Positions 2,129 through 57,086 of a stretch of DNA of 57,791 bases are shown here, in pieces. The notes under the pieces were generated by a model, which saw only the letters and a list, made by a program, of their open reading frames with translations, ran no database searches and had not been told where the DNA came from. The translations under genes were made by a program, and so were the position numbers. Source of the stretch: an uncultured Candidatus Saccharibacteria bacterium (GTDB lineage Bacteria > Patescibacteriota > Minisyncoccia > Phycocordibacterales > SBAW01); assembly GCA_964355655.1 (NCBI GenBank), contig CAYHDT010000005.1:1-57791 (forward strand). Direction: 5' to 3'. Numbering within the stretch: position 1 is the first letter of the stretch; every line of letters begins with the position of its first letter.

Positions 2129-2242
2129 ATTTTCATTTTCACGGCAGGCGAGCTAAAAGTCAAAGCAAGTTATATACATACACAAGTTACTTTGACCTAA
2201 GAAATTAATTTTTATCTAAAAATCAGATGGTATGATTAAGGC

Positions 2243-4153
2243 ATGAAGAAGGCCCTTCTGTATGCTCTTTTTGGCATAGTAGTTTTCTCTTTTGCTCCGG
2301 TTGGCACTGCCAACGCGGCGGGGGAGATTGTAGTCGGATCCACTACGCAGCCTAACGCCGTACCGGCCGCGCCAAAGACCGTTATCGCCCTTACGCGCTT
2401 TACCTTGCAAAACACAGGTACGAGCAGCGTTACGCTTACCGGACTTAACGTGCAGCAAGCGGGTACCGCGGCGGATTCTGTTATCGCCGGAGTACTGATA
2501 TGGGATGAAGATATCGCTGTAGTTGGTTCTAAATTAGGGACAAGCACTTTTGACTCCTCTCATGCGGCAACCATACTGCTTTCTTTTACCGTCTCCGCGG
2601 GCCAAACCCGTGCGCTCATACTTGGCGTTTCGATGGCGGCGGATATATCCGCCGAAGCCGGCAAAACTGTCTCACTTGTCCTGACAGGGCTGCAAACCTC
2701 TCCTTCCGCGCCAGTTGCGGGCCTGGTACCGTTTACCGGGGGTATCCAAGCGGTTATTCCCTCGCCGTTTATGCCCCCGCCGCAGTGTAAGATGTCGGCG
2801 ACGCCGTCGAGCCTTACTAAAGGCGGGAGTTTTACGCTTAAGTGGAGCAGTATCAACGCTACCTCGGCGAATATTCCGGGCCCGAGTCTGGGCGACGTGC
2901 CTGTGTCGGGTCAGGCAAATCTTATTCCCCTCAGTTCCACCCGCTATATAGGGACATTTATCGGCGCAGGAGGCAAAGCTACTTGTGAGACAATAATTAC
3001 CGTCTTCCTTACCGACGGGGCGAGTACCCCGATAGGGGATTCATCCGGAGATATTGTGTCTGACCCCGGCACCTTTGGCCCGCCCGCGCCGCTTGGACAA
3101 ACGCCGTCTCTTGGCGCTCCGCCGACTATACAGGCCGGGCCGCCGATTAAGCTCTCTAACAACGAAGGTTCGGGTTTAATTCCATGTACCGGCATCAACT
3201 GCCAAGCTTGCAGACTTGCCGACCTTGCTCAAAACATCATCAACTTTTTAATCGGGCTCTCTATCCCGCTGGCGGCGGCGATGTTCGCTTACGCGGGAGT
3301 CATTTACTTTACCTCCGGAGTCATAGATAAGATTGAAAAAGCAAAGAAAATCTTTACCTCCGTGCTTATCGGCTTTGCGCTGGTAGCGGGCGGGTGGCTC
3401 ATTGTACAGACCATACTCAGCACTATATTGAGCGACAGTTATAAAAATTGGAACGAAATCAAGTGTATACAAGCAAAGGATAATACTCCCGGCGGACGGC
3501 AACTAAACAAAAGTATAAACGACCTCCTCGGCTCGATAAGCGTACTTAATAACCTCAACACCAGCGGCCAGCCGCCGGTAACGCCAGCGTCTTATCTGTC
3601 GGGAGGCCAACTGACACCGCCGCCGGGCGGAGGATGCGATGAGGCAACCAACACATGTTGGGACAAAGACGGCAAGATGGTCGACCCGGTAAGAACTTCT
3701 GTAACTAATCCGGAAATGGAAGCGCAGATAGCCGAAGCCTGTTCCAAATATGGAATGAGCAGCAGTGAATGCGCTTATGCAAAAAGTATCGCGATGAATG
3801 AGTCCAGCGGCGGTAAAAATTGCACCACTAGCGCGACAGGAGCTGCCGGCTGCATGCAGGTGCTTGCAACGACCGCGTGTGGTCTGGACTCTTCTATATC
3901 ATCTAGTTGTGGTGCATGCACTGCCAGCCGCAACAGCACTAGTGCCGCATGTGCACCGGTCATTCAAACCATTGCAAGTAACTCCCAGCTTGGTACCAAT
4001 CTCGGGATACAATACTATCATCAGATGTACAGCCAATACGGAGGTTCCTGCCAATTGGCCGCCGCCGCTTACTATCAAGGTCCCGGAAACGTAAAAAAAT
4101 ACGGCGGTGTGCCGCCTAATGCAGTTAGTTATGTCAATACGGCGTGCAGATAG
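2243..4153 (+). CDS. secreted/membrane protein: Ig-like region + TrbC/VirB2-like pilin segment + C-terminal lytic transglycosylase (SLT)
   Basis: Signal peptide; LIPC..C..C followed by two TM helices; SLT motifs AMNESSG, AAGCMQV, AAYYQGPG. Confidence 0.75.
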   Translation: MKKALLYALFGIVVFSFAPVGTANAAGEIVVGSTTQPNAVPAAPKTVIALTRFTLQNTGTSSVTLTGLNVQQAGTAADSVIAGVLIWDEDIAVVGSKLGTSTFDSSHAATILLSFTVSAGQTRALILGVSMAADISAEAGKTVSLVLTGLQTSPSAPVAGLVPFTGGIQAVIPSPFMPPPQCKMSATPSSLTKGGSFTLKWSSINATSANIPGPSLGDVPVSGQANLIPLSSTRYIGTFIGAGGKATCETIITVFLTDGASTPIGDSSGDIVSDPGTFGPPAPLGQTPSLGAPPTIQAGPPIKLSNNEGSGLIPCTGINCQACRLADLAQNIINFLIGLSIPLAAAMFAYAGVIYFTSGVIDKIEKAKKIFTSVLIGFALVAGGWLIVQTILSTILSDSYKNWNEIKCIQAKDNTPGGRQLNKSINDLLGSISVLNNLNTSGQPPVTPASYLSGGQLTPPPGGGCDEATNTCWDKDGKMVDPVRTSVTNPEMEAQIAEACSKYGMSSSECAYAKSIAMNESSGGKNCTTSATGAAGCMQVLATTACGLDSSISSSCGACTASRNSTSAACAPVIQTIASNSQLGTNLGIQYYHQMYSQYGGSCQLAAAAYYQGPGNVKKYGGVPPNAVSYVNTACR

Positions 4154-4167
4154 AGTACAATCAAATT

Positions 4168-4872
4168 ATGCAAGCACAATTTTCTAAAATTATAATAATC
4201 ATCTGCGCTGTTCTCGTTGTGGTAGGTGGAGGATTCTTGCTTTTTTCGTGGTTATCTACGCCAGGTTCGAAGCTTAATACACAGACGCCGCCATCCGGTA
4301 CCTCCTATGGCGGTTCGAATCAAATTTCGGTACAGACTCCATCTTCTACATCAAATCAACAACAAACATTGCCGGACATCCAAGGTGCATACGCGCGGCT
4401 CTTTGAGAAAATTTTGGCTAAAAAAATACTGTTTGCCAGGGTAAACTCTTCTACAGGAGATACAGGGAGTCTTTATAGTCTGTACGCTAAAGATGTGGCT
4501 GAAGCAAAGAAAATGTTTCCGGCACAAAGTGACTTTTCTATAGGGGTAGCGCTTCTTGATATTACCGATGACGGCGTCGCCGAAGCATTAGTGTTGGATG
4601 ATCTACCCGGCTATTGCGGTACCGGCGGCTGCACGCTTGATATATATAAAAAACAAAATGGGAAATGGGTATCAATATACAATGTACTCGCGCAAGGTGA
4701 GATAGGACTTTCAAATACGATTACTAGCGGGTATCAGGATCTCTTTTTGTCGGTGCATACCAGTGGGAGTCCAAATACTGCTGTGGTGCGTTATGTATGG
4801 GATGGCAAGACATATCAGCCGGGGGAGGTCATGGCTGTCTGGGATGGAACTATTTTCCGTACCGCCCAATAA
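4168..4872 (+). CDS. membrane-anchored exported protein with D-x-x-x-D-G and CGTGGC motifs
   Basis: N-terminal TM; LDITDDGVAEAL...YCGTGGCTLDIY. Confidence 0.7.
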   Translation: MQAQFSKIIIIICAVLVVVGGGFLLFSWLSTPGSKLNTQTPPSGTSYGGSNQISVQTPSSTSNQQQTLPDIQGAYARLFEKILAKKILFARVNSSTGDTGSLYSLYAKDVAEAKKMFPAQSDFSIGVALLDITDDGVAEALVLDDLPGYCGTGGCTLDIYKKQNGKWVSIYNVLAQGEIGLSNTITSGYQDLFLSVHTSGSPNTAVVRYVWDGKTYQPGEVMAVWDGTIFRTAQ

Positions 4873-4920
4873 GTTGCGCTAAAATGCGGTTTAGGGTAAA
4901 GTGTTTTGGCAATGTCACAA

Positions 4921-5268: not shown

Positions 5269-6111
5269 TTAGCGCGAAAGGAATTTTTTTGAAAGTCGCA
5301 GAGCCTCTTTTTTGCCGCCCACCCAGTGTATGTCTTTGTGGCGCTTAAACCACCGGTTTTGGCGTTTTGCATACTGCTCTTCTCCGCGGACAATCGCATC
5401 CGCCAACTGCTTTTTAGTTATCTTTTTATCCAGATAGTCGGCTAATAAGGCAAACTCAAATCCCAACTCCAAGAATCTTTTTTTAGACAGTGCGGCGCGG
5501 AGTTTTTTTGCTTCGGCTACCATACCGAGCTTTAGGCGCGCCGTGACGCCCGCGCGGATGTTTTTAGATTTTTTTAAGCCCAGCCACAGCACCCGGTAGG
5601 GGGGCTCGCGCACCAGGCTTGGCACGGTGCCGAGAGTTTTCGCTATCTCTATCGCGCGGATCATCCGTACCGGATTGCGCTTGTCTACGCGTTTGGCGCT
5701 GGCCGGGTCGATTTTTTGCAGTATCGCAAAAAGCTGCGCAGGAGACTTTTTAGCAAGCGCCGCGCGGAGTGTTTTATCCGGCGCGACTTTCGGCAGGCGC
5801 CATCCGCGCAAAAAAGCATCGGCATAAAGCCCGGCTCCGCCGACTACAATAGGTATTCTAGTATTTTGCAAAATACTGGAACAGATTTTCGCCGCATCTT
5901 TTTGGTACTGGCCGACGCTGTATTGGCGGCGCGGGTCGGCAACTCCCACCATGTGGCCTCTCTCCGCGCGCGAGATGACAGCCATGCCCCTATAGAGCTG
6001 CCGGCTGTCGGCCGAGATAATCTCCCCGTTCAGTTTTTTAGCAAGCCAAATGCCGAGCGAGCTCTTGCCCGAGGCGGTCGGGCCCACAATAGCTATAACT
6101 TTATGCTTCAT
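5269..6111 (-). CDS. miaA: tRNA dimethylallyltransferase
   Basis: GPTASGKS, IISADSRQLY, VGGAGLY, YAKRQ..WF. Confidence 0.95.
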   Translation of the reverse strand: MKHKVIAIVGPTASGKSSLGIWLAKKLNGEIISADSRQLYRGMAVISRAERGHMVGVADPRRQYSVGQYQKDAAKICSSILQNTRIPIVVGGAGLYADAFLRGWRLPKVAPDKTLRAALAKKSPAQLFAILQKIDPASAKRVDKRNPVRMIRAIEIAKTLGTVPSLVREPPYRVLWLGLKKSKNIRAGVTARLKLGMVAEAKKLRAALSKKRFLELGFEFALLADYLDKKITKKQLADAIVRGEEQYAKRQNRWFKRHKDIHWVGGKKEALRLSKKFLSR

Positions 6112-6144
6112 CCGGGTAACTGTACAAAATAAAAAACCCCGGCG

Positions 6145-7310: not shown

Positions 7311-7335
7311 AGGATGCCATGTTAGAATATCTCCA

Positions 7336-8325
7336 ATGCTGCAATTTCACAATAACGCAATTTTTTGGGTGGAGGTCGATAAAATCAAACCGAACCCGTT
7401 TCAGCCGCGCAAGGAGTTTGATGAGGCCAAGCTCAATGACCTGGCAAAGTCGATCCGCCAGTACGGCGTTATCCAGCCGTTAACAGTCACTCGCGTCGAA
7501 GTAGAGAAGCCCGACGGCGGGATAGCTACCGAATACGAGCTTATCGCCGGGGAGCGCCGGCTGCGCGCCGCAAAACTGGCGGGCGTGGGCTCGGTACCGG
7601 TGCTTATCCGCGCGGGGCACGATGACGACAAAACTAAGCTCGAGCTGGCTATTATAGAAAACCTCCAGCGCGAGGACCTTAACCCGGTAGACCGCGCCAA
7701 AGCTTTTGATCAGCTGGTGCGCCAATTCGGCTTTAAGCACGTACAAGTGGCAGAAAAGGTCGGCAGGTCCCGCGAGTATGTCAGCAACACTATCCGCCTA
7801 TTGCTGCTGCCGCAGACAATGCAGGACGCTTTGTCCGAAGGGAAAATAAGCGAGGGACACACCCGCCCGCTCCTGATGCTTGCCGACCGTCCAACCGAGC
7901 AGGAGGTGCTTTTTAGAGAAATTATGCTGAAGCGGCTTACGGTGCGCGACACCGAGTCTATCGCTCGGCGCATCGCCTTTGACCGCGTGCGCAAAAAAGA
8001 ATATTTATACTCGCCTGAAATTTTGAGCATGGAGCGGGAGCTTACCGAGGCGCTCGGTACGCGTGTTGCGATCGAGCCCAAGGAGCACGGCGGCAAACTC
8101 TCTATTGACTTTATGTCCGAGGACGACCTTAGGGTGCTTTTTGCCGCGCTTGCCGCGCGGATTGCAGCCGGCAAACAGCCGGCTGTCCCGACCGAAGTGG
8201 AGGGACACAGCCCCTCGACTAGGCTCGGGGCAACCAGCTCATCTGATGAGCTGGTTGATGACCGCTCTAAAGATGAAATAGTAAAAGACGAAAACACCTT
8301 CGACCCGGGCAGTTTTTCCCTTTAG
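7336..8325 (+). CDS. parB: ParB/Spo0J partition protein
   Basis: NPFQPRKEF, YGVIQP, LIAGERRLRA, IIENLQREDLNP; start set at ATG 7336. Confidence 0.95.
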   Translation: MLQFHNNAIFWVEVDKIKPNPFQPRKEFDEAKLNDLAKSIRQYGVIQPLTVTRVEVEKPDGGIATEYELIAGERRLRAAKLAGVGSVPVLIRAGHDDDKTKLELAIIENLQREDLNPVDRAKAFDQLVRQFGFKHVQVAEKVGRSREYVSNTIRLLLLPQTMQDALSEGKISEGHTRPLLMLADRPTEQEVLFREIMLKRLTVRDTESIARRIAFDRVRKKEYLYSPEILSMERELTEALGTRVAIEPKEHGGKLSIDFMSEDDLRVLFAALAARIAAGKQPAVPTEVEGHSPSTRLGATSSSDELVDDRSKDEIVKDENTFDPGSFSL

Positions 8326-9929
8326 GATTTTTTGCGTGTGCGCGGAGCCGCGGCCTTGGTCGCTTTTTCCAGTGCCATTCGGATGTGCCGCCGCGCGAGA
8401 GTCGTCTTGGCGAAGTCGAGCCATTTTTGTTTCGGAGCGGCCGATTTTTTTGTCACAATCTCAACAATATCGCCGTTATGCAAGGTGGTGTCCAAAGCAA
8501 CGAGCTTGCCGTTGACTTTGGCGCCGAAGATACGGTCGCCTATGTCGGAGTGTATCGCGTAGGCAAAGTCGACGGGGCTGGAGTGCAGCGGCAAATCGAC
8601 TACATCGCCGGTCGGAGTAAAGACAAATACCCGCGCGGTAAAAATATCGGTTTTGAGCGTTGTTTCAAAATCCGGGTCCTGCGACTCCTCGGTAAGGTCC
8701 TGCAGCCATTCGGGCCCGCCCTGGGCGCCATAGCGGGCGCGTTCGGGCTTTCCTGCATCTGCGGCAGACGGCTCTTTTTCCGGCACACCCTTCTTATCGG
8801 GGTGAGCCATCTTGCGGAAGCTCGGTATCAGGCTTTTTATCCAGTCAAAGCTCGACTGTCGTCCGCCGCCGGAGCGGGCTCCCGGGCTTTGCGGACCGTC
8901 GCCCTCTTTGTATAAGACGTGCGCCGTGATGCCGTACTCGGCTTCGCGGTGCATGTCGGCCGTGCGTATCTGAATTTCGACGATGCCGCCGTCGCCGGAG
9001 AAAACCGTCGTGTGCAGACTTTGATAGCCGTTGGGCTTGGGGAAGGCGATGTAGTCTTTAATTTTATTAGGCAGGGGCTGCCATAGGTTGTTGACGATAC
9101 CAAGCACGCGATAGCAGTCGGGAACGTCCTTGACGATGATGCGCAACGCGGCGATGTCATATATTTTGTCGATATCGCCGCTCTTGCGTTTGAGCTTGCG
9201 CCACAGACTGTATAAGCCTTTGACCCGATAGTCGCTGTGGAACCCGGTTATCTCTTCCTTGGCTATTTGCTTGCGCAGGGTGCGCGACATCTTTTCGAGC
9301 CGCTCGAGCGTCTCTTCGGCGCGGCCGGCCAAAAGTTTTGTTGTCTCCGCAAACTCGGTTGGGAAAGCGTGCTCAAAAGCGAGGTCCTCCAGTTGCCGGC
9401 GCACAACTCCCATACCGAGCCGGTGGGCTATCGCCGCGTAAATTTCCAGCGTCTCCAGCGCGATGCGCGTGCGCTTTTCCTGCGGCACATATTGGAGCGT
9501 CCGCATATTATGCAGGCGGTCCATAAGCTTGATGATGAGCACGCGCGCATCTTTGCCGGTGGCCACCAGGAGCTTGCGGAGGCTCTCGCGGTGGCGCTCG
9601 GCCCCGCGGTACTTCAACCGCCCGAGCTTGGTAACGCCCTCCACTAAAAATTTGATTTCTTTTCCGAACTCCTTCTCAAGTGTTTCGGGGCTGACACCCG
9701 CGTCTTCTATGCTGTCGTGCAACAACCCGGCCGCAACCGTCTTGGCTCCCATGCCAAGCCCGGCCAGGCCTTTGGCCGTCTCGACCAAGTGCACCAGGTA
9801 CGGCTCGCCACTAAAGCGTTTGTGCTCCTTGTGCGCCTCGGCGGCAAAGTTGTAAGCCTTCTCCACCAATGCGAGCTCCTCGGCAGTTGGAGCGCCCATC
9901 TTTTGCAGGATTTCCTTTACGCTCTCCAT
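8322..9929 (-). CDS. RelA/SpoT (p)ppGpp synthetase/hydrolase (HD, SYNTH, TGS domains)
   Basis: RFSGEPY, LLHDSIED, KLMDRLHNMRTL, KDYIAFPKPNGYQSLHT, VFTPTG...VDFAYAIHSD. Confidence 0.95.
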   Translation of the reverse strand: MESVKEILQKMGAPTAEELALVEKAYNFAAEAHKEHKRFSGEPYLVHLVETAKGLAGLGMGAKTVAAGLLHDSIEDAGVSPETLEKEFGKEIKFLVEGVTKLGRLKYRGAERHRESLRKLLVATGKDARVLIIKLMDRLHNMRTLQYVPQEKRTRIALETLEIYAAIAHRLGMGVVRRQLEDLAFEHAFPTEFAETTKLLAGRAEETLERLEKMSRTLRKQIAKEEITGFHSDYRVKGLYSLWRKLKRKSGDIDKIYDIAALRIIVKDVPDCYRVLGIVNNLWQPLPNKIKDYIAFPKPNGYQSLHTTVFSGDGGIVEIQIRTADMHREAEYGITAHVLYKEGDGPQSPGARSGGGRQSSFDWIKSLIPSFRKMAHPDKKGVPEKEPSAADAGKPERARYGAQGGPEWLQDLTEESQDPDFETTLKTDIFTARVFVFTPTGDVVDLPLHSSPVDFAYAIHSDIGDRIFGAKVNGKLVALDTTLHNGDIVEIVTKKSAAPKQKWLDFAKTTLARRHIRMALEKATKAAAPRTRKKS

Positions 9930-10023
9930 ATAACCAGTGTACACACTGGAAGCTCCAAGCGCCAAATTTCAAATTATATACAAGCTCCAAAAAAGCTTAA
10001 AAATAAGGCTGTATTGACACCCC

Positions 10024-12747: not shown

Positions 12748-13611
12748 CTACACTCTTTCGATTTTACCAAGCCTCTCTACTATAAGCCCGCGGATGAGTA
12801 ATGACGAAAGAGCGATGTTTGCATCCTGCGCGCAGAGGCCGGAATTCTCTATCAATTCATCGCGCACCAAGGGTTCGGTAAGCGCATGAAGCGCCCGCAT
12901 CTCGGCCTGGCCAAGGTCGGTGGGGAGTGGCGCCTGTTTTGGCGTATCAAGCGGTTTTATCCCCAGCGCCTGCAGAATGTCATCCGCGGCGCGGACCAGC
13001 GTCGCGCCCTCGCGGATCAGGCGGTTGACACCGGCTCCGGTTTCGCGGCCCAGTTCGTGCGGTATTGCCAGCACCTCGCGGTTGTAGTCGAGCGCGAGCC
13101 GCGCGGTAATCAGCGTGCCGGACTTCTCGCCCGCTTCTATTATCAAAGCGGCGGCTGACATGCCCGCGCTTATGCGGTTGCGCTTAGGGAAGTCGTAGAT
13201 AGCGGCTTTGTGGGGCCCCCGCTCCTCGCTTATGAGCGCGCCGCCCCGGGCTAAAATACGCTGCGCTATCGGCTTGTTGGTCGACGGATATATAGAGGAG
13301 TCGTCGCAAGAAGAGGGAAGCACGGCGATAGTGCGGAGTCCGACATCCATTGCCGCTTTATGAGCCTCGGAGTCTATCCCGAGCGCCATGCCGGACACCA
13401 CCGCGACCGGATATCCGGCAAGGCCCGCGATGAGCTGTTGGCAGATGCGGCGTCCGTACAAAGAAGTGGCGCGCGAGCCGACGACACACAGGTACTTGTG
13501 GTCTTTAGGCGGGAGCTCGCCGCGAATATATAAGACTTTAGGCTTGTCGGGAATCTCGCGCAAAAGCGGCGGAAACTCCCTCGGTGGCAGTTGGCGTATA
13601 GGAAAAGACAT
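12748..13611 (-). CDS. dprA: DNA-processing protein DprA
   Basis: LREIPDKP, VVGSR, VSGMALGID, FPKRNRISAG, EAGEKSGTLITA. Confidence 0.95.
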   Translation of the reverse strand: MSFPIRQLPPREFPPLLREIPDKPKVLYIRGELPPKDHKYLCVVGSRATSLYGRRICQQLIAGLAGYPVAVVSGMALGIDSEAHKAAMDVGLRTIAVLPSSCDDSSIYPSTNKPIAQRILARGGALISEERGPHKAAIYDFPKRNRISAGMSAAALIIEAGEKSGTLITARLALDYNREVLAIPHELGRETGAGVNRLIREGATLVRAADDILQALGIKPLDTPKQAPLPTDLGQAEMRALHALTEPLVRDELIENSGLCAQDANIALSSLLIRGLIVERLGKIERV

Positions 13612-13626
13612 TGTAGTCTATTATAT

Positions 13627-14910
13627 ATGCTCGATTTGCAGTTTATCCGCGACAATACCGACATCGTCCGCGCGACGCTTGAAAACAAAAAGCGCGAGGT
13701 CGACCTTGACCGTCTTTTACAGCTGGCCGACGAGCGCAAAGCGGCCGCCGGCGAAGTCGGTGAGATAAATAAAAAACGAAACGAGGCGCAGCAAAATCGC
13801 GATGCCGAAGCGGGCAAGCGGCTGAAGGACGAGCTGAGGGTGGCGGAAGAGAAGTATGCCGCGCTTGAAAAAGAAGTTGTTTCGCTTTTGATAAAAATTC
13901 CTAATGTGCCTTCGGCAGACACTCCTATCGGTCCCGACGAGTCTGGCAATGTAGTTGTACGCGAGTGGGGAGAGAAGCGGGTTTTTAGTTTTAAACCTAA
14001 AGAGCACTTCGAGTTGGGCCGCGAGTTGGGCATTATCGATACTGAAAAAGCGACGGAAGTATCCGGCCCGCGCTTCGCATACCTGAAGGGTGACCTGGTG
14101 CTGATGGAGATGGCACTTATGGACCTCGCATGGAGAACGATTACCTCAGAGAGTACCCTTGCCAAAATAATCGCCGATGCGGGACTCTCGCTGAGCGCGA
14201 AACCTTTTATACCGGTAACCCCCCCGCTCATGATGCGCTCGGTGGTGATGAATCGCATGGCGCGGCTCGATCCGATAGACGAGCGCTACTATTTTGAGAA
14301 AGATGACCTGGTGTTTATCGGCAGCGCCGAGCATACGCTGGGCCCCTTGCATATGGACGAAAATTTGCCGGAGAGCGCGTTGCCGCTGCGCTACGCCGCG
14401 CTTACGCCGGCCTTCCGCCGCGAGGCGGGCACGTACGGTAAGGATACGAAAGGCATCTTGCGCTTGCATCAGTTTAATAAATTGGAAATGGAGTCGTTTA
14501 CCAAGCCGGAGGACGGCCTCTCCGAGCAGGAATTTATGGTGGCTATACAAGAATATCTGATGCAACAACTGCGTTTGCCGTACCGCGTCGTTTCAATTTG
14601 CACCGGAGACATGGGCTTTCCCGACCAGCGGCAAATAGATATAGAAACTTGGATGCCGGGCCAGGACCAATATCGCGAAACGCACACCTCCGATTATATA
14701 GGAGGCTTCCAGGCGCGGCGGCTCAATACTAAGGTCAAGCGCGCCGACGGCACCAGTGAACCCGTGCATATGAACGACGCCACCGCACTCTCTCAGCGCC
14801 CGCTTATTGCCATATTGGAGAACTACCAAAACGAGGACGGTTCGGTAACCGTGCCCGAGGTCCTGCGCGCGTATATGGGGAAAGAGAAGATTACTGCGAC
14901 ACAAAAGTAG
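13627..14910 (+). CDS. serS: seryl-tRNA synthetase
   Basis: MLDLQFIR, IPNVP, FRREAG...GILRLHQFNKLE, HMNDAT. Confidence 0.97.
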   Translation: MLDLQFIRDNTDIVRATLENKKREVDLDRLLQLADERKAAAGEVGEINKKRNEAQQNRDAEAGKRLKDELRVAEEKYAALEKEVVSLLIKIPNVPSADTPIGPDESGNVVVREWGEKRVFSFKPKEHFELGRELGIIDTEKATEVSGPRFAYLKGDLVLMEMALMDLAWRTITSESTLAKIIADAGLSLSAKPFIPVTPPLMMRSVVMNRMARLDPIDERYYFEKDDLVFIGSAEHTLGPLHMDENLPESALPLRYAALTPAFRREAGTYGKDTKGILRLHQFNKLEMESFTKPEDGLSEQEFMVAIQEYLMQQLRLPYRVVSICTGDMGFPDQRQIDIETWMPGQDQYRETHTSDYIGGFQARRLNTKVKRADGTSEPVHMNDATALSQRPLIAILENYQNEDGSVTVPEVLRAYMGKEKITATQK

Positions 14911-14984: not shown

Positions 14985-15014
14985 AACTACTTTTGTTTCG
15001 CTTATACTGTAGTT

Positions 15015-15821
15015 ATGGCCCGCGTAGAACTCCCCGAATCCCGCCTGCGGCTCCGCAAGCGCCGCCGCAGAGTGCGCGTTGCCGCTGTGTTTATTGTATT
15101 TGTTCTGATTGTGGTGTGCGGTTTAGTAGGTCTGACCTACTGGCCGGCTCTGCGGATAAAAGATGTTGCGGTAAGCGGCGCGCAGACGCTCCCGCCCGGC
15201 ACGGTTGAGGCTTTTGTACGCGACCGCCTGGCGGGGGAGTACTGGTACGTGTTTTCCAAGAGTAATATTTTTTTGTATCCAAAACAGCAAATTGCGGCCG
15301 ACCTTGTGCAGACGTATCCGGTGCTCGCAAGCGCCGATGTGCACGCGGCGGACTTTCATACCATCACAGTCAACCTCGTCGAGAGGGAACCGCGCGCCCT
15401 TTTGTGCTCGCAAGACAACAGATGTCTGTTTATGGATGAAAACGGCGTCGCGTATACCGATGCACCAATTTTTTCCGAGCCGGTGTATGTAAGCTATTAC
15501 GGCTCCACGACCGGCAACATGCTCCCTAAGCAGTTTTTAACGCCAGTGGAGTTCCAAGCGCTCTCCGCGCTGGTGGACGCGATAGCGCAAAAGCTGCAGG
15601 GCGAGCAGGCGGCGGACATAGCCGTCGACGGAGAAAAGGATGTCCGCATGCGCTTCGTGTCCGGCTTTACCCTTATCTTTGCGCTCTCCGACCATGGCGG
15701 CGACGTCTTCGAGCGGCTCGGGCTTGCCCTCATTGCCGAGCCGCTGGCGGCGCACAAACTATCGGACTTCGAGTATCTGGATTTGCGCTTCGGGGACAAA
15801 CTGTATTACAAATTGAAGTAA
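15015..15821 (+). CDS. FtsQ/DivIB-like protein
   Basis: Basic N-terminus, TM, POTRA-like segment, VNLVEREP, EYLDLRFGDKLY. Confidence 0.75.
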   Translation: MARVELPESRLRLRKRRRRVRVAAVFIVFVLIVVCGLVGLTYWPALRIKDVAVSGAQTLPPGTVEAFVRDRLAGEYWYVFSKSNIFLYPKQQIAADLVQTYPVLASADVHAADFHTITVNLVEREPRALLCSQDNRCLFMDENGVAYTDAPIFSEPVYVSYYGSTTGNMLPKQFLTPVEFQALSALVDAIAQKLQGEQAADIAVDGEKDVRMRFVSGFTLIFALSDHGGDVFERLGLALIAEPLAAHKLSDFEYLDLRFGDKLYYKLK

Positions 15822-18476: not shown

Positions 18477-18525
18477 AATGGGGATAGATCGTACCAAGGT
18501 ATTATATTTACGGTAGAATATAAGC

Positions 18526-39060: not shown

Positions 39061-39103
39061 GACAAACTCCTTTTTCTTCTGGGACGAAGAGTATACTAAC
39101 TAT

Positions 39104-39628
39104 ATGCAGGAAACAATAGTCTTCGGCGGGGGATGCTTTTGGTGCACGGAGGCGGTTTTTCTGATGATTAAGGGAGGGCAGTCGGTGGAGCCGGGATATA
39201 CCGGAGGTAACACTGTTGATCCGACCGATACCGACGTTTATACCGGGAAGACCGGCCACGCGGAGGTGGTCAAAATAGAGTACAACCCCGATCAAATTTC
39301 TCTTGAAGAGTTATTACAGGTATTTTTTTCTACACACGACGGTACACAGCTCAACCGCCAGGGGCCGGATGTGGGCACTATGTATCGCTCGGCTATTTTT
39401 TACACTACCGAGCGCCAGAGAGAAAAGGCCCGGCACTATATTGATGTTCTAAATAAAAATGTTACTCAGCGTATTGTGACTGAAGTTGTGCCTCTCGATA
39501 AATTCTATCCGGCACAGGATTATCACAAAAATTTCTACAAAAGCGGTAATCGCCCGGATTATTGTGAGTTAGTTATCGATCCAAAAGTTGATAAGGTAAA
39601 AAATAAATTCAAAAGCCTACTCAAATGA
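39104..39628 (+). CDS. msrA: peptide-methionine (S)-S-oxide reductase
   Basis: FGGGCFWC, GHAEV, QGPDVG.MYRS, YH. Confidence 0.95.
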   Translation: MQETIVFGGGCFWCTEAVFLMIKGGQSVEPGYTGGNTVDPTDTDVYTGKTGHAEVVKIEYNPDQISLEELLQVFFSTHDGTQLNRQGPDVGTMYRSAIFYTTERQREKARHYIDVLNKNVTQRIVTEVVPLDKFYPAQDYHKNFYKSGNRPDYCELVIDPKVDKVKNKFKSLLK

Positions 39629-40485: not shown

Positions 40486-41249
40486 TACGCCGGCCTGCGG
40501 TAGCGGTTAAATAGCCGCCAGAGGAAATACAGTACCAGGAGCGCCGCTACCGGGTAAAAGATGCCCGCGCTGCCGATAATAAAGTTAAGCAGGGTAAGCA
40601 GATACAGATAAAGGGTCCAGAGGATAAACCAAAAAGTGCCTGTCGGGTCGGTAGTGGCTTGCGCGACCGTCCCGGCGCCCAACACCTCGCCGGAACGATC
40701 GCCCAGGTTAACCTTGGCGGCCGCTATTTGGCCGTCGATAGTGTCGGAGAGCGTCGCGCGCCCGCTGTCGATGAACTTAAAGACCGGTGCCGTGGCATTG
40801 GCCGCGGCGGGGGAAAAGCCGGCTATGCTGTCCTGGATTTTTTGCGAAGATTCGACCGGTGCGGCGGCCTGTGCGACTGTATCCGCTGGCTGCGGCTTTG
40901 CGGCGATGCTGAAAGTCTCGGATTGTCTCTCTACAACCTCGGTGCCTTTCTTCAGCTCGGCGACAACCGTGTGCGAGCCTTTCAGGGGCTTCCAGGATAC
41001 CGATACTACCGACGCTTCGTTTGCATTAAGCGACACCGGCACACTGCCGATAGCCGCCGCCCCTTCGCTGAACTGCATCGTACCGGTAAAAGCGGACGCG
41101 TCCTCGTTGGCGATGACGGCGTGGATAATCACCGTTTCTCCCTCGACTACCGCCGACCGCGACAGAAAGAGCGACTGCTTGGCAAACCCCGCCCCAAAAG
41201 CGATATAAGGAGCCGCTAATAGTGCGAGCAATAACGCGTATTTCATCAT
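40482..41249 (-). CDS. exported Ig-like (CARDB-like) protein with C-terminal TM
   Basis: Signal peptide, beta-rich domain, C-terminal hydrophobic helices. Confidence 0.7.
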   Translation of the reverse strand: MMKYALLLALLAAPYIAFGAGFAKQSLFLSRSAVVEGETVIIHAVIANEDASAFTGTMQFSEGAAAIGSVPVSLNANEASVVSVSWKPLKGSHTVVAELKKGTEVVERQSETFSIAAKPQPADTVAQAAAPVESSQKIQDSIAGFSPAAANATAPVFKFIDSGRATLSDTIDGQIAAAKVNLGDRSGEVLGAGTVAQATTDPTGTFWFILWTLYLYLLTLLNFIIGSAGIFYPVAALLVLYFLWRLFNRYRRPAY

Positions 41250-41263
41250 GCTATTATTATTGC

Positions 41264-42205
41264 ATGAGATTTTTTAGGTGGTGCAAGCGGCTTTTGGTTC
41301 CGCATCACGAAAACGCCTATCGCCCGCATCTTTTGCGCCGCGGCTCGCTTGTATTTTTGCTCGCGGTGGCGCTTTTGGCTGAAGGTGCACTAGTCTTCAA
41401 TCTTATGGCCCGGCACGGGGGAGCGGGCTTTATGGCCGCGGTGATACAAAGCGAGATTATTTCGCTTACCAACTCGGAGCGCGCGCAAAATAAAATAGCT
41501 GTTCTCGCGGAAAATACTCTCCTTAACCAGTCCGCACAAGCTAAAGCTGATGATATGGCCACAAAGGGCTATTTTGCGCACAATAGCCCGGACGGCACGC
41601 AGCCTTGGAGCTGGATAGACGCCGCCGGATACGATTATCAGTACGCGGGGGAAAATTTGGCCGTTCGATTCGTCGATTCGAAAGACGTCGTTGTCGGTTG
41701 GATGGCGTCGCCGACGCACCGCGCCAACATTGTCAAGCCGGCGTACACTGAGGTGGGCGTTGGCATCGCGCAAGGCATGTATAAAGGCCAAATAGCGACG
41801 TTTGTGGTGCAGCATTTTGCAAAACCGTCGGCCAAGGCGCTCGCTGCGCGGGCGAGCGGGCAGGTACTGGGCGCCGAAATAGGTCCTCCGCCGTCGCTAA
41901 CCGACACGGCCCTGCGCACTGCGGGCAAGATTATTTCCGAACCAAGGCAGACGACCGCGTGGGTACTGGGCGGGATAATCGCTCTTCTCGCGCTGGCGCT
42001 CGTCATCGCTTTTTTCCACCATGTGCAGGTACAGGCGCGCGACCTTTTGGTGCCGGGGACCATGGTTGCAGTCGTTGCTTTGACGCTCCTTGTTATCAAC
42101 ACAAACTTTCTTTCATCAACTATTACGGTAACTGCGCAGGAGGCGGGGGTTGCGGGCTACCATGGAGTAGTATTGACGCCCGAAGCCGGCTACTCGGAAC
42201 GGTAA
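41264..42205 (+). CDS. CAP/SCP-domain membrane protein
   Basis: AQAKADDM..GYFAH, AGENLA, WMASPTHRANI. Confidence 0.88.
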   Translation: MRFFRWCKRLLVPHHENAYRPHLLRRGSLVFLLAVALLAEGALVFNLMARHGGAGFMAAVIQSEIISLTNSERAQNKIAVLAENTLLNQSAQAKADDMATKGYFAHNSPDGTQPWSWIDAAGYDYQYAGENLAVRFVDSKDVVVGWMASPTHRANIVKPAYTEVGVGIAQGMYKGQIATFVVQHFAKPSAKALAARASGQVLGAEIGPPPSLTDTALRTAGKIISEPRQTTAWVLGGIIALLALALVIAFFHHVQVQARDLLVPGTMVAVVALTLLVINTNFLSSTITVTAQEAGVAGYHGVVLTPEAGYSER

Positions 42206-42747: not shown

Positions 42748-42796
42748 AGCTCCGCAAAAACTTCGTTTTTGCTCCGTATCTTGCTACTCTTCCGTG

Positions 42797-44083
42797 ATGC
42801 GTCCGATTTCCTTTCAGATAGAAAAAGAAATGCCCGGCTCCCTCGCGAGAGCCGGCATTTTGTCTACGCCGCATGGCGATATTAAAACGCCGGCTTTTGT
42901 CGCGGTGGGGACTAAGGCAGATGTCAAAGGAGTTCAAACGGCGCAGTTCGGCGAACTTGGCATTCAAACTATCATCGCCAACACCTACCATTTATATCTT
43001 TCGCCCGGTCCTGAGTTGATTGCAAAGGCGGGCGGGATACATACGTTTATGGGCTTTGACGGGCCTATCATGACCGACTCGGGCGGCTTCCAAGTCTTTT
43101 CGCTCGGCGAGGGATTTGGTAAAAAGGTTTCGAAAGTCACAGCCGGTGAAAAAGTTCCTTTCTCCGGAGAGATAAACACGACCCCAACTCCTACAAAAGA
43201 AACTTTTTCACCGGCTGTGTACGATGAAGAGTTGGCAACCTCTCACGGCAAGCTTGCAATCATTGATGATGACGGCGTAACTTTTACTTCGCACATTGAC
43301 GGAAGCCTTCACCGGTTTACTCCTGAACGCTCTGTTGAAATACAGCATAGCCTCGGCGCGGATATTATTTATGCGTTCGACGAGTGTACTTCCCCCGCGG
43401 CCGACCATGAGTATCAAAAAGAGGCGATGGACAGAACGCACCGCTGGGCCGACCGCTCGCTGAAGGCCCACCGGCAGATGTCAACAAAGGCTAAACCTTT
43501 GCATTGCAAAGGTTTAGCCTTTGTACCGGGGATATACGGTATCGTGCAGGGCGGACGGTTTGCCGACCTGCGTATTGAGAGCGCCAAATATCTGGCCGGC
43601 ATGGACTTTGACGGCTACGGCATCGGCGGCTCGTTCAGCAAGCACGATATTCTTGGGATATTGGACAAAGTAAATACGGAACTGCCTAAGGAGAAGCCGC
43701 GCCACTTGCTCGGCATCGGCGAGCCCGAAGATATTTTTATCGGAGTTGCATCCGGTATAGACACGTTTGACTGTGTTACCCCGACCCGCAACGGCCGCAA
43801 TGGGGGGATATATGCCGTAGACGGCAAATATCAAATTCCAAATAACAAATATCAAACGGATTTCGGGCCGCTTGATGAAGGGTGCGAGTGTCCCGTCTGT
43901 AAAGTGCATACCCGCGCCTATGTGCACCACCTGTTCCGCACCAAAGAAATGCTTGGCGGTATTTTAGCATCTATGCACAACTTATATTTCCTGACGAATC
44001 TGGTTCAGCAAATCCGGGCGTCTATACTGGACGGCTCGTTCGAGCGTTATCAACAGTCCTTCCTTCAAGAGTATAAGCAGTGA
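42797..44083 (+). CDS. tgt: tRNA-guanine transglycosylase
   Basis: TPAFV.VGT, MTDSGGFQVFSL, GIVQGG, FDCV.PTR, CECPVC...H. Confidence 0.95.
   Translation: MRPISFQIEKEMPGSLARAGILSTPHGDIKTPAFVAVGTKADVKGVQTAQFGELGIQTIIANTYHLYLSPGPELIAKAGGIHTFMGFDGPIMTDSGGFQVFSLGEGFGKKVSKVTAGEKVPFSGEINTTPTPTKETFSPAVYDEELATSHGKLAIIDDDGVTFTSHIDGSLHRFTPERSVEIQHSLGADIIYAFDECTSPAADHEYQKEAMDRTHRWADRSLKAHRQMSTKAKPLHCKGLAFVPGIYGIVQGGRFADLRIESAKYLAGMDFDGYGIGGSFSKHDILGILDKVNTELPKEKPRHLLGIGEPEDIFIGVASGIDTFDCVTPTRNGRNGGIYAVDGKYQIPNNKYQTDFGPLDEGCECPVCKVHTRAYVHHLFRTKEMLGGILASMHNLYFLTNLVQQIRASILDGSFERYQQSFLQEYKQ
43138..43219. repeat. in-frame 19-bp inverted repeat insert in tgt
   Basis: CACAGCCGGTGAAAAAGTT / AACTTTTTCACCGGCTGTG. 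Confidence 0.8.
43484..43524. repeat. in-frame 20-bp inverted repeat in tgt (AAGG-N5-CCTT pair)
   Basis: ACAAAGGCTAAACCTTTGCA-T-TGCAAAGGTTTAGCCTTTGT. Confidence 0.85.
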
Positions 44084-44096
44084 GTATACTAAAGGA

Positions 44097-44408
44097 GTGT
44101 ACAGGAATTTATGGATGGCTGGAGTAGCCATTGTTGTTGCCGTTATAGCTATAGGCACGTATTTTTACCTGCAGTCCCGGCCTGTGCCAGAGCCGGCTAT
44201 CGTGCTCCAAACAACAGAAGAAGACGTCTATTCGCCTGAAGTGCAAGCGCTGCAGCTTAAAAATCTTAAAGCGTTAGCCGCAAGTATGGCTTCGGAGCAG
44301 GCGCAAGTTCAACAACAAGCACAATTGGCGGCGCTTAAATCTCTGCAGCCCGGACAAGCACAAACAAATCAAGACCAGTTGAAGTCGCTCCAATCTCTGG
44401 GCATGTAA
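44097..44408 (+). CDS. membrane-anchored Gln-rich hypothetical protein
   Basis: TM helix followed by repeated Q-L--LKSL segments. Confidence 0.6.
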   Translation: MYRNLWMAGVAIVVAVIAIGTYFYLQSRPVPEPAIVLQTTEEDVYSPEVQALQLKNLKALAASMASEQAQVQQQAQLAALKSLQPGQAQTNQDQLKSLQSLGM

Positions 44409-48953: not shown

Positions 48954-49001
48954 GCATGCACCGGCTAAACCAAAACCGGTTATCTTTGCTAGAATGGCCG
49001 G

Positions 49002-51149
49002 ATGGCTAATTTTAAACTCTCGACCCACCACACGCCTGCCGGCGACCAGCCCAAGGCCATCGAGGCTCTGATACAGGGTCTTACGCGCGGCGAGCGGCAC
49101 CAAACCCTGCTGGGGGTGACCGGTTCGGGCAAGACTTTTACCGCGGCTAATGTTATTGCCGCGCTCGACAAGCCCACGCTGGTTATAGCCCACAACAAAA
49201 CGCTGGCCGCCCAGCTGGCGCAGGAGTACCGGGACTTTTTTCCCGATGCAGCGGTGCACTATTTTGTCTCGTACTACGACTACTATCAGCCGGAGGCGTA
49301 CATGGCGCACTCCGACACTTACATAGAAAAGGAGGCGCAAATAAACGAAGAGATAGAGCGCTTGCGCCACGCTTCGACGCAGGCCCTGCTGACGCGCAAA
49401 GATGTGATAGTAGTCGCCTCGGTATCCTGCATTTACGGCCTGGGGAGCCCCGAAGAGTATCGCAAAGTGCACCTCGAGCTGAAATCAGGCATCAAAAAGA
49501 ACCGCGCGGAGCTTATCCGCGAGCTCATCGGCGTGTACTTTGAGCGCACAAATGCCGACTTAACCCCCGGCACCTTTAGGGCATTGGGCAACAGTGTGGA
49601 AATAATGCCGACGGGCGAGCGGGTGCTGTACCGCGTCGAGTTCGCCCATTCGACGGGCTCAGGGCAAGAGGGCGAGCAAATCGGCAAACTGCGCATTATA
49701 GACGCGGTTACCCGCGCAGAAATAAATCAAGGACCGTCCTCCATTTTTTTGTTTCCGGCCAAGCATTACGTTACCCCTGAGCATGAGCGAGCGCGCGCCA
49801 TCGCGGATATTCGCGCGGAGCTCAAGGCCCAGCTCGCCAAGTTTGAGCGTGCGGGCAAGCTGCTTGAAGCCGAGCGTCTGAAACGCCGCACCAACTATGA
49901 CTTGGCGATGATACGCGAGGTGGGCTACTGCAACGGGATAGAAAACTATTCCCGCCATTTTGACGGCCGGAAGGCCGGCGAACCCGCACACTCTCTATTG
50001 GAATATTTTCCGCACAAAAAAGACGGCACGCCCGACTTTCTGACTATTATAGACGAGAGCCATGTAACGGTGCCGCAGATAGGCGGCATGTACGCGGGCG
50101 ACCGCGCCCGCAAGGAAACACTGATAGATTTCGGTTTCCGGCTGCCGAGCGCTTTAGACAACCGGCCGCTGCGGTTTGAGGAATTTGAGGAGCGGGTAGG
50201 GCAGGTTATCTATACGTCAGCGACGCCGGGGCCGTATGAAAAAGAAAAGAGCGGCAAGAATATAGTCGAGCAGATTGTCCGGCCGACCGGTCTTTTGGAT
50301 CCGATTATTGATATTCGCCCGGTTACCAGCGGCGCGGTTCTAAAGGACTCTCCTTTGGCTCCCCGTCTGAATTCCAAAGGTTTAGCCTTTGTTTCAAAGG
50401 CTAAACCTTTGGAATCGTATCAAGGACAGGTCCAGGATGTGATAGAAGAGGTGGCAAAAGTGGTCAAGCGCGGCAACCGCGTGCTTATCACCACGCTTAC
50501 CAAAAAGATGGCCGAAGACTTAAACGACTACTTGAAAGAGCGCGGCATAAAGTCGACTTACCTGCACAGCGACGTAGAGACGCTGGAGCGGATTGAAATA
50601 CTGACCAGCCTGCGCCGCGGCGAGTACGATGTGTTGGTGGGCGTCAACCTCCTGCGCGAGGGGCTCGACCTCCCCGAGGTGGAACTGGTGGCGATCCTCG
50701 ATGCCGACAAAGAAGGGTTTTTACGCAGCGAGGTATCGCTGATACAAACCATTGGCCGAGCCGCGCGCAACAGCGCGGGACGGGTTATTTTGTATGCCGA
50801 CCAGGAGACGCCTTCTTTAGTTAAAGCAGTGGGGGAAACCCGCCGCCGCCGTACTGCGCAGGAAGCGTACAATAAAAAGCACGGGATTACGCCGACCACT
50901 ATCATAAAAAATATAAAAGATATTACCGAGGAGCTCCGTAGCGAACATTCTAAAGCGATAGTTACTATGCTCGAGGTGGACAAAGAGCTGTATAAAAAGA
51001 ATCCGCGCCAATTTATCGCGGCTAAAAAACGCGAGATGGCCGAGGCGGTCAAGGAGCTCGACTTTGAGTCGGCAGCTCTTATCCGTGATGAGATTTTAGC
51101 CTTGACCGGAGGAAATGCTAAAAAGAGGCCAAAAAAGCCCAAAAAATAA
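49002..51149 (+). CDS. uvrB: excinuclease ABC subunit B
   Basis: [44 protein letters not shown]. Confidence 0.98.
50342..50415. repeat. three AAGG-N5-CCTT units in frame in uvrB
   Basis: AAAGG-ACTCT-CCTTT followed by a 21-bp inverted repeat at 50371-50415. Confidence 0.85.
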
Positions 51150-55696: not shown

Positions 55697-55737
55697 GGTG
55701 TATACCTACGATAGATATAACCGGCAGGGAGTTTGCC

Positions 55738-56058
55738 ATGACAGCCGATGCAGTCTTTGTTCAACAGCCAAACGTGGAAGCACAACGCGCCGAATGGATG
55801 AAAAAACACATCGGTGTGTTTAAGACGGAATGCTATTGCAACTGTTTGCCCGGGAGGTTTGTGACGGATCATGCATCGATTCTCCCGTTTAACGTACCAA
55901 TGTCAGAGAAGATGTTTGGCCCGGGGCGGGATAATTACGGGCAGGATTCGTTTACTCCGCCTCAGTTGCAGCATGAGTACTATTGCGACTCCTGCGGCGC
56001 GATGTACCATCCGTCGGTCATCGAGAAATTCTACACGCCGCGCGAAAAGCGTAAGTGA
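55738..56058 (+). CDS. hypothetical protein with Cys pairs (possible Zn ribbon)
   Basis: GGAG SD; CYCNC and CDSC; terminator at ~56064-56090. Confidence 0.6.
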   Translation: MTADAVFVQQPNVEAQRAEWMKKHIGVFKTECYCNCLPGRFVTDHASILPFNVPMSEKMFGPGRDNYGQDSFTPPQLQHEYYCDSCGAMYHPSVIEKFYTPREKRK

Positions 56059-56108
56059 TCGCAAGCCGCCGAACTTTGGCGGCTTTTTCTTTGTTATATA
56101 CTGCATAC

Positions 56109-57086
56109 ATGCGGACAGTAGTAGCGGTATTGCGTGGCGGGCCTAGCAGCGAGTATGAGGTGTCGCTCAAATCGGGCGCTACCGTTTTGCGCGAGCTTGA
56201 TAAAGATAAATACGACGTGCGCGACCTTTTTATATCGCGGGGCGGCGACTGGCATTTGCACGGCGTTCCGGTATCTCCTGAAAAAGCACTTTTTGGCGTG
56301 GATGTGGCTTGGAACGCGATACACGGCGAATACGGCGAGGATGGCCGGCTGCATCATCTGTTGGACGCGCTTGGCGTGTCTTACACCGGTTCGGGCGCCG
56401 CGGCTTCGAAGCTGGCCTTCAATAAACAGCACACGAAAGATTTGCTTGCAAAAAACGGCATCAAGGTCGCCCACGGTGTTGTGGTAGCGGTCCCGCAAGA
56501 CGAAGGCGCGCGGGAACGGGTCGCGATAGATTTGTTTCGGACAATGCCGCACCCCGCTATAGTCAAGCCGGTCATCGGCGGCAGCTCGGTGGGCGTGTCG
56601 GTCGCAGAAAATTATCATGCGTTGGCGGAGGCTCTCGCGCGAGCTTCCGGGGTTTCGCCCGAGGTGCTGGTTGAGGAGATGATTCGCGGCAGGGAAGCCA
56701 CGGTAGGAGTCATAGATGGTTTTCGCGGGCATAAAACTTACGCCCTTATGCCGGTCGAGATAATCCCGCCACCAAAGCGTTTTTTCGATTATGAGGTTAA
56801 ATATAACGGCGAGACTATTGAGCGCGTGCCGGGCAATTTTTCAGACACCGAGAAAGCCGAGCTCGAGCGCGCGGCCAAGCTTGCCCACGAGCTTGTAGGC
56901 GCGGCGCACTACTCGCGCTCGGATTTTATTGTCTCGCGCCGGGGCGTGTATTTTCTTGAGATAAACAGTGCGCAGGCGGTCGGCTTGACCGAAGAGTCGC
57001 TGTTACCAAAAGCACTGCACGCAGGGGGCACTAAGCTCTCGGACTTTATCGACCATGTCATATCGCTCGTGCATAACAAAAAATGA
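56109..57086 (+). CDS. ddl: D-alanine-D-alanine ligase
   Basis: GGPSSEYEVSL.SG, HG.YGEDG, KP..GGSSVG, YEVKY, LEIN. Confidence 0.93.
   Translation: MRTVVAVLRGGPSSEYEVSLKSGATVLRELDKDKYDVRDLFISRGGDWHLHGVPVSPEKALFGVDVAWNAIHGEYGEDGRLHHLLDALGVSYTGSGAAASKLAFNKQHTKDLLAKNGIKVAHGVVVAVPQDEGARERVAIDLFRTMPHPAIVKPVIGGSSVGVSVAENYHALAEALARASGVSPEVLVEEMIRGREATVGVIDGFRGHKTYALMPVEIIPPPKRFFDYEVKYNGETIERVPGNFSDTEKAELERAAKLAHELVGAAHYSRSDFIVSRRGVYFLEINSAQAVGLTEESLLPKALHAGGTKLSDFIDHVISLVHNKK

Follow-up and report, generated by a model that had tools for sequence, protein, structure and literature searches.

How is translation started on genes whose promoter-like box ends only 6–8 nucleotides (nt) before the start codon? 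The question is raised by a 57,791-nt stretch of DNA, all of which we call the window, from an uncultured Candidatus Saccharibacteria bacterium (GenBank assembly GCA_964355655.1, contig CAYHDT010000005.1), in which a first-pass annotation had noticed the motif TAnnnT just before many housekeeping genes. This window corresponds to contig C5 of an assembly of 863,296 bp in 24 contigs, with 53% GC and 97% completeness. The source organism is an ultra-small Patescibacteria (candidate phyla radiation, CPR) bacterium, and its UvrB is 62–65% identical to the UvrB of metagenome-assembled genomes (MAGs) labelled Saccharibacteria, Campbellbacteria, Parcubacteria and Paceibacterota. We put at roughly 0.8 the probability that the TAnnnT boxes are -10 elements of a housekeeping, sigma-70-type promoter that, judging from sequence, would give leaderless mRNAs for the first gene of each transcription unit.

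All 19 sites listed by the first-pass annotation are present where it had placed them, with TAnnnT 6–8 nt before an ATG (a GTG at 44097). The extended TGn that it had seen at many of them stands at 9 of the 19 boxes, and its statement that most of these genes have no Shine-Dalgarno (SD) sequence holds throughout, with a GGAG-type SD at 0 of 19. Together with one further site at dprA, absent from its list, this makes 20 sites among ~57 window genes, where ~4 are expected from a background of ~2% per spacing.

2228..2245, plus strand: TGgTATGAT (box 2231–2236), spacer 6, ATG 2243; a 636-amino-acid (aa) transglycosylase-like gene with a weak murein transglycosylase match.
6109..6124, minus strand: TACAGT (box 6119–6124), spacer 7, ATG 6111; miaA, residue 5 at position 1 of profile TIGR00174.
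7320..7338, plus strand: TGtTAGAAT (box 7323–7328), spacer 7, ATG 7336; parB, ParB_N domain from residue 12.
9927..9941, minus strand: TACACT (box 9936–9941), spacer 6, ATG 9929; relA/spoT, residue 2 at position 5 of PRK11092.
13609..13629, minus strand: TATAAT (13620–13625), spacer 8, ATG 13611; dprA, TIGR00732 match, the additional site.
13609..13629, plus strand: TAGTCT (13614–13619), spacer 7, ATG 13627; serS, residue 1 at position 1 of TIGR00414.
15003..15017, plus strand: TATACT, spacer 6, ATG 15015; FtsQ-like gene.
18514..18528, plus strand: TAGAAT, spacer 6, ATG 18526; 232-aa open reading frame (ORF) ending inside tRNA-Gln.
23425..23442, plus strand: TGcTACAAT, spacer 6, ATG 23440; small hydrophobic ORF, 49 aa.
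25061..25079, plus strand: TGcTATACT, spacer 7, ATG 25077; 134 aa, with an orthologue in the same-genus comparison genome G018.
25506..25523, plus strand: TGcTATAGT, spacer 6, ATG 25521; 200 aa, likewise with an orthologue in G018.
33009..33027, plus strand: TGgTAAAAT, spacer 7, ATG 33025; GlcD-like FAD-linked oxidase, superseding the start TTG 32998.
34727..34743, plus strand: TACAAT, spacer 8, ATG 34741; pseudopilin, prepilin N-terminal domain from residue 7.
36492..36506, plus strand: TATAGT, spacer 6, ATG 36504; rarA.
39092..39106, plus strand: TATACT, spacer 6, ATG 39104; msrA, residue 3 at position 1 of TIGR00401.
41249..41266, plus strand: TGcTATTAT, spacer 6, ATG 41264; YkwD-family protein.
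42782..42799, plus strand: TGcTACTCT, spacer 6, ATG 42797; tgt, residue 6 at position 1 of TIGR00430.
44085..44099, plus strand: TATACT, spacer 6, GTG 44097; 103 aa.
48987..49004, plus strand: TGcTAGAATggccggATG, TAGAAT at spacer 6, start 49002; uvrB, residue 3 at profile position 1.
56097..56111, plus strand: TATACT, spacer 6, ATG 56109; ddl, residue 5 at position 2 of TIGR01205.

The first-pass annotation had also proposed that this spacing corrects start calls, and profile alignments agree for serS, relA, msrA, ddl, parB and tgt. They further back the starts that the rule gives for uvrB and miaA, those of tgt, uvrB and miaA falling within 2–5 residues of the profiles. Where the rule and the longest ORF conflict, this independent evidence favours the rule. 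Three longer starts were rejected in this way: 6778 for parB, which would overlap tRNA-Leu; 38891 for msrA, 71 codons too long in the TIGR00401 alignment; and the GTG at 56055 for ddl, 18 codons longer than the profile-supported ATG. The weakest site of the window is 44097, with a GTG start, 13 nt after tgt, and no family match. The box before 34741 overlaps the end of the upstream gene and is a candidate internal promoter. At dprA and serS, two opposite-strand boxes stand back to back in the 15-nt gap between divergent start codons; the upstream part of each promoter must therefore lie inside the coding sequence of the other gene. A second tight divergent pair is found at 41249–41264, with start codons 14 nt apart.

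Two side observations concern genes of this list. The 232-aa ORF 18526–19224, which has no family match, runs 15 nt into tRNA-Gln (19210–19281). The pseudopilin gene at 34741–35793 and another at 21383–21868 both encode type IV pilins or pseudopilins with the N-terminal methylation motif, and their N-terminal 80 nt are multi-copy in the genome and in its congeners; their promoters differ, one gene being leadered and SD-less with a promoter ~50 nt upstream, the other having its -10 box at 8 nt.

Does the pattern extend to the whole genome? We called 864 genes, covering 88% of the DNA, with a dicodon model for which long ORFs of this genome served as the training set, and placed starts with an iterative model of the GeneMarkS-2 type, which combines a coding term, a start-codon prior and either a -10 model or an SD model, each with its spacer distribution. 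As this model picks starts partly by motif, we counted enrichment at longest-ORF starts, which are free of motif information. Positional enrichment throughout the genome, whose absence the first-pass annotation had named as fatal to its reading, is evident: TAnnnT peaks sharply at spacer 6, where it precedes 12.2% of 851 genes; the adjacent spacings give ~2%, and in-frame ATGs inside genes 0.6%. Where the upstream gap is 40 nt or longer, the share at spacer 6 is 14.9%.

Such a peak might be an artefact of composition or annotation, produced by AT-rich intergenic DNA, in-frame stops or motif-chosen starts. In-frame TAA and TAG stops do mildly raise spacers 0, 3 and 9, and the motif does have a part in the choice of starts by the model. 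Because in-frame stops inflate spacers 0, 3, 6 and 9, the count was repeated with TAYnnT, a form that excludes stop codons and still peaks 6-fold, with 9.6% at spacer 6, 4.2% at spacer 7 and ~1.5% elsewhere among genes whose upstream gap is 40 nt or longer. When TGnTAnnnT-N(k)-ATG is counted on the two strands regardless of annotation, a peak appears only at k = 6–7, with 99 cases for these two spacings together (in brackets, cases with an ORF of at least 80 codons after the ATG):

k = 6: 57 (42).
k = 7: 42 (35).
k = 8: 24 (15).
k = 9: 18 (11).
Other spacings: ~12 (~4) each.

Shifted windows in the same intergenic DNA give ~20 leaderless-type calls as against 232, starts are confirmed by independent profile alignments, and the class is conserved across orthologues. 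The controls largely refute an artefact, to which we assign a negligible chance. The excess of genes, taken over all candidate starts minus phase-matched control spacings, is ~180. TGnTAnnnT is recognisable in the upstream intergenic region of 209 genes and lies 6–9 nt from the start in 94; among those with a same-genus orthologue, it does so in 64 of 107.

The start model divides the genes into three approximate classes:

Leaderless-type: 232 genes (27%), with spacers of 6 nt in 116, 7 nt in 58, 8 nt in 26 and 9 nt in 17.
SD-type: 149 genes (17%).
Unclassified: 483 genes.

Decoys, for which the same models were scored 15–21 nt further upstream, yield 17–25 false leaderless-type calls and 25–30 false SD calls, and when any candidate start is allowed 259 genes are leaderless-type versus 81–97 in shifted controls. 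On account of these decoys and controls, we take the robust leaderless-type class to be ~175–210 genes. For most of the class (182 of 232) the upstream gene is divergent or lies 40 nt or more away, and the class accounts for 182 of the 561 operon-first genes (32%).

The learned motif is nTGgTAtAaT, with model percentages of T57 G66 n T100 A100 T47 A73 A47 T100, TG in 42% of the genes and a weak TTG exactly 17 nt upstream; to judge from these bases, the box is a sigma-70-type extended -10 element with a weak -35. The box could instead be imagined as an A/U-rich translation enhancer that acts without SD at the mRNA level on leadered transcripts, as in Bacteroidota (GeneMarkS-2 group B). Internal genes do have an A-rich, G-poor upstream context with T at -1, and the 16S rRNA of relatives has no anti-SD. 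A group-B signal would, however, precede all genes alike, whereas the box is concentrated at operon-first genes and what precedes the internal genes is a diffuse A-rich pattern of another kind; moreover, sigma-70 promoters are marked by just this combination of invariant T-A-N3-T, TG extension and TTG at 17 nt. We regard such an enhancer as very unlikely.

Given a promoter, where does transcription begin? The modal spacer is 6 nt, and the canonical sigma-70 +1 therefore falls on the A of the ATG. ATG is the start codon of 91% of leaderless-type genes (78% in the SD class, where 17% use GTG), and a pyrimidine occupies -1 in 68% of them. It is conceivable that these are real promoters whose +1 lies a few bases before the AUG, giving very short leaders of 1–5 nt, and 24 further genes with an extended -10 box 10–20 nt from the start lend this some support. 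Against it stand the mode of exactly 6 nt, found in 116 of 232 genes and implying a canonical +1 at the A, together with 68% pyrimidine at -1 and 91% A at +1; leaders of 1–5 nt cannot hold a ribosome-binding site in any case, so that such mRNAs would be functionally leaderless. We consider this alternative unlikely and retain a predicted start of the mRNA at or very near the AUG.

Evolutionary conservation argues in the same direction. The comparison genome G018 (same genus, 754-kb main contig, 62% GC), classified by the same start model, has 251 leaderless-type genes among 706 and forms 409 reciprocal-best pairs with the present genome at a median protein identity of 64%. An orthologue in G018 is present for 65% of our leaderless-type genes and is itself leaderless-type in 112 of 151 cases, as against 62 by chance (chi-square p = 2e-30). 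Further afield, of 17 uvrB loci from other Patescibacteria, 7 have TAnnnT at spacer 6–9 and none has an SD, while the uvrB upstream regions of Bacillus and Neomoorella contain AGGAGG or GGGGGA. A side observation is the divergence in composition within this one genus, with GC of 62% in G018 and 53% here and core third-position GC of 0.85 and 0.65; leaderless-type promoters at orthologous genes are kept despite this gap of 9 points (20 at third positions).

How much of the genome follows this pattern? The first-pass annotation had called the leaderless architecture pervasive, which is right in direction but overstated about twofold: the class comprises ~27% of all genes and about half of the core transcription units. 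It had also held that leaderless initiation dominates core genes. Of the 249 operon-first genes with a G018 orthologue, 120 (48%) are leaderless-type, 7 (3%) are SD-type and 122 are neither; leaderless initiation is thus the largest recognisable mode of core operon-first genes, with a majority unproven given the 122 unclassified.

If the mRNAs of first genes carry no ribosome-binding site, what has become of the anti-SD of the 16S rRNA, which the first-pass annotation had proposed to check? The check was made in relatives, as the assembly contains no rRNA gene on any of its 24 contigs; the missing rRNA operon may adjoin the window's contig end, where tRNA-Ala(UGC) (57721–57791) is cut. In 12 relatives (8 of the same genus and 4 of the same order but other families), all 16S genes are without the CCUCC anti-SD. 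Their 3' ends can be matched base for base with that of E. coli, whose GCGGUUGGAUCACCUCCUUA corresponds to GUCGUGGAAYAAUUCAAAU in these relatives; their tail is GGAAYAAUUCA... in place of GGAUCACCUCCUUA. The method of extraction works, since it recovered the canonical CACCUCCUU tail in 16 of 20 other Patescibacteria. The 1.5 kb that follow the relatives' 16S genes contain no consistent CCUCC. We also considered, and rejected, an anti-SD that is displaced or split: CACCUCCUU-type tails, sought 1.5 kb past the relatives' 16S genes, in the G018 contig and in the present genome, matched only coding sequence and tRNA acceptor ends. The sequences downstream of these genes have conserved features of their own in relatives L083–L092, namely a hairpin directly after the truncated tail (…CAAUUCAAAUG…CUCGUACGAG…UGAAUYG GCGAU) and, ~200 nt beyond it, a conserved ACGGAACAAGAGAAAGGUGUUUCU block; both may be processing signals.

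The ribosomal proteins of the genome itself can be compared with published work. A six-frame search for uL1 (PF00687) in this 97%-complete genome gave no match, while 14 of 14 control genomes were positive. S1 is present as a protein of 378 aa with four domains, and S21 is represented by a sub-threshold match only. Loss of uL1 and loss of the anti-SD co-occur in a subgroup of Parcubacteria: Tsurumaki et al. 2022 (RNA 28:1041, PMC9297842) found the anti-SD undetectable in about half of Parcubacteria, largely a uL1-less group, in which SD helices probably do not form. The mode of initiation is not addressed in that paper, from which the word 'leaderless' is absent.

The remaining genes of each transcription unit show how initiation may proceed downstream. 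The commonest operon-internal junctions are the 4-nt ATGA overlap (41 cases) and then gaps of 0–10 nt. No SD precedes the 205 operon-internal genes left unclassified; between -13 and -2, A ranges over 0.34–0.46 and G over 0.04–0.19, T is at -1 in 58%, and the codons after the ATG are A-rich. To judge from this spacing, termination-reinitiation coupling fits the operon-internal genes. Among conserved genes the SD class is at decoy level, with 6 of 146 internal and 7 of 249 first genes. A related side observation is that T at -1 occurs in 49–58% of all starts that are neither leaderless-type nor SD-type, with A-rich first codons; the two may form a Kozak-like context for SD-less initiation or reinitiation.

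Based on these data, we propose the following scheme. With the -10 box ending 6–8 nt before the start, RNA polymerase would begin at the A of the AUG or within ~2 nt of it, and the first-gene mRNA would then have no 5' untranslated region and no ribosome-binding site. A 70S ribosome or an initiator-tRNA complex would load directly on the 5'-terminal AUG. The downstream genes of the unit, which follow at -4 to +10 nt and have an SD-less upstream context rich in A and poor in G, would be reached by termination-reinitiation coupling. Leaderless initiation and coupling would together govern the conserved genes of a lineage whose 16S rRNA lacks the anti-SD, and probably made SD/anti-SD pairing dispensable. 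The data themselves establish the motif and its positional enrichment, the start codons, the conservation across orthologues, the SD-less state of core genes and the loss of the anti-SD in relatives; the transcription start sites, the mode of ribosome loading and the order of evolutionary events are what we infer.

Several points weigh against this scheme. About half of the core operon-first genes fall in neither class. The term leaderless is itself drawn from promoter geometry, and the spacers of 8–11 nt (~25% of the class) may give leaders of 1–4 nt. Our home-made gene and start caller mis-starts some genes (parB, msrA), and the class percentages are therefore approximate. As the assembly is without 16S, the loss of the anti-SD is deduced from relatives and from the loss of uL1. 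Lastly, ~110–150 well-formed SDs in a genus without anti-SD show that the picture of initiation is incomplete.

These SDs form a second class, outside the first-pass account: ~110–150 genes have a classical AGGAGG SD 5–8 nt before the start. The first base of GGAG is at -10 in 37 genes, -11 in 19 and -12 in 10, with 3–4 at other positions; the context is aAGGAGg, and many lie ~30–45 nt downstream of a TGnTAnnnT-like promoter. Nearly all members are accessory. G018, whose own 16S is without anti-SD, also has such a class (80 genes). The window holds one contrasting accessory stretch:

19994..24998: four leadered orphan genes, 20404 (minus strand), 22030, 22977 and 23781 (plus strand), each with a GGAG or GGAGG SD 6–8 nt before the ATG.

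None of the four matches a Pfam family or has a DNA homologue in 30 same-genus genomes. Just upstream of 22030 lies an intergenic element of ~55 nt (21905–21961), with copies at C1:1405–1463 and C6:2042–2100 and in several same-genus genomes at 81–96% identity, a much closer match than orthologous genes show; a similar sequence precedes 22977. The element could be a mobile module that serves as promoter/leader or terminator.

Why should SDs persist in this genus? The idea that one repeated promoter-leader cassette produces the SD peak was rejected, as 141 of the 149 upstream regions are singletons in an all-against-all blastn comparison. The simplest reading is that the SDs are a non-functional carry-over on genes recently imported from SD-using donors (other Patescibacteria or other phyla), with the host translating them independently of SD. 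Only 14 of the 149 genes (9%) have a G018 orthologue, and the SD is kept in just 4 of the 14 pairs; the genes cluster along contigs (40 adjacent pairs versus 24.8 expected); the island of the window has no DNA homologue in 30 congeners; and G363, a partial genome of the same order that is also without anti-SD, shows no SD peak. Yet the third-position GC (GC3) of the class equals that of the host core here (0.66 vs 0.65); in G018 it is 0.76, much closer to the core of that genome (0.85) than to the value in the present genome. Such host-like GC3 points to long residence of these genes. They also have a sharply defined SD spacing and, like functional SD genes, an excess of GTG starts, which are three times as frequent as among leaderless-type genes, and their upstream regions are mutually unrelated, which argues that the SDs are maintained gene by gene. 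Carry-over has in our view an even chance of being right. If the accessory SDs are functional, their reader must be something other than the canonical 16S 3' tail. A tentative and rather doubtful extension would give the genus two initiation regimes, the core being leaderless or reinitiation-coupled without SD and more than 100 accessory genes having a maintained AGGAGG, with leaderless initiation arising first and permitting the loss of the anti-SD.

The order of these events can be approached through the distribution of the signature across the phylum. We searched 401 Patescibacteria genomes for TGNTANNNTNNNNNNATG against a reversed-pattern control, the statistics covering the first 178. The observed/control ratio has a median of 2.3 and is at least 2 in 62% and at least 3 in 33% of these 178 genomes; it falls below 1.3 in 12%, concentrated in a few families, and is 3.9 in the present genome. 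Where the 16S tail was read, the anti-SD is kept in 10 of 10 low-ratio genomes; of 10 high-ratio genomes, 4 are without it (from families of this order and class) and 6 have it, so that the leaderless signature is much wider than the loss of the anti-SD. Every anti-SD-less lineage examined carries the signature. On the doubtful extension above, its wide occurrence, together with its presence in all of these lineages, would suggest that leaderless initiation preceded and permitted the loss of the anti-SD. Two partial genomes illustrate the range: G363 has 28% leaderless-type genes, and G082, which has an anti-SD, combines 26% leaderless-type with 17% SD genes, the SDs also standing at overlapping internal genes.

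How does this compare with known systems? Leaderless initiation is known from mycobacteria and Deinococcus, and the leaderless share in the present genome is comparable to that of mycobacteria. Termination-reinitiation coupling reportedly operates in archaeal and bacterial operons; the present genome resembles such operons in its 41 ATGA overlaps and its same-strand gaps of 0–10 nt without SD, the coupling itself being deduced here from spacing.

The geometry, motif and frequencies are those of group C in the GeneMarkS-2 scheme (Lomsadze et al. 2018, PMC6028130), which comprises Mycobacterium, Corynebacterium, Streptomyces and Deinococcus-Thermus, with a Pribnow box 6–8 nt from the start and 25–50% of operons predicted to be leaderless. 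Our genome shares the Pribnow-type -10 at 6–8 nt before the first-gene start and the strong preference for AUG, and its leaderless-type share of 32% of all and 48% of conserved operon-first genes matches that range. It differs in that the remaining genes of group C have SD ribosome-binding sites and the anti-SD is kept, whereas here the core internal genes are SD-less, the relatives' 16S lacks the anti-SD and SDs are restricted to accessory genes; it also belongs to another phylum. With the Parcubacteria subgroup of PMC9297842 it shares the absence of uL1, and the 16S of 12 of 12 relatives is like that subgroup in lacking CCUCC; while that study describes losses only, our data give a candidate mode of initiation, leaderless plus coupling. 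With Bacteroidota (group B) it shares an A-rich, G-poor, SD-less upstream region, here at internal genes, but Bacteroidota keep the anti-SD and use one motif before first and internal genes, whereas the first genes here carry a promoter box.

In the literature searched we found no paper on translation initiation or ribosome-binding sites in Patescibacteria, and none linking leaderless mRNAs with Patescibacteria, CPR, Saccharibacteria or Parcubacteria, although CPR genomes may be present in the group C supplement of GeneMarkS-2. For TM7x, another CPR organism, a set of 188 transcription start sites is used in PMC12641261.

Patescibacteria make up a large, mostly uncultured share of bacterial diversity in which gene expression is almost unstudied. 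Should half of the core units be leaderless and the remainder SD-less, gene callers that rely on SD, such as Prodigal, would misplace many starts in thousands of MAGs; in the window, taking the longest ORF gives a wrong start for at least 5 genes. For the few members that can be cultivated, expression tools should be built on -10-N6-ATG cassettes and not on SD cassettes. Our result offers a mechanistic answer to the point left open in PMC9297842, namely how Parcubacteria without an anti-SD initiate translation, and lends weight to the idea that a bacterial lineage can give up SD pairing entirely in favour of leaderless initiation.

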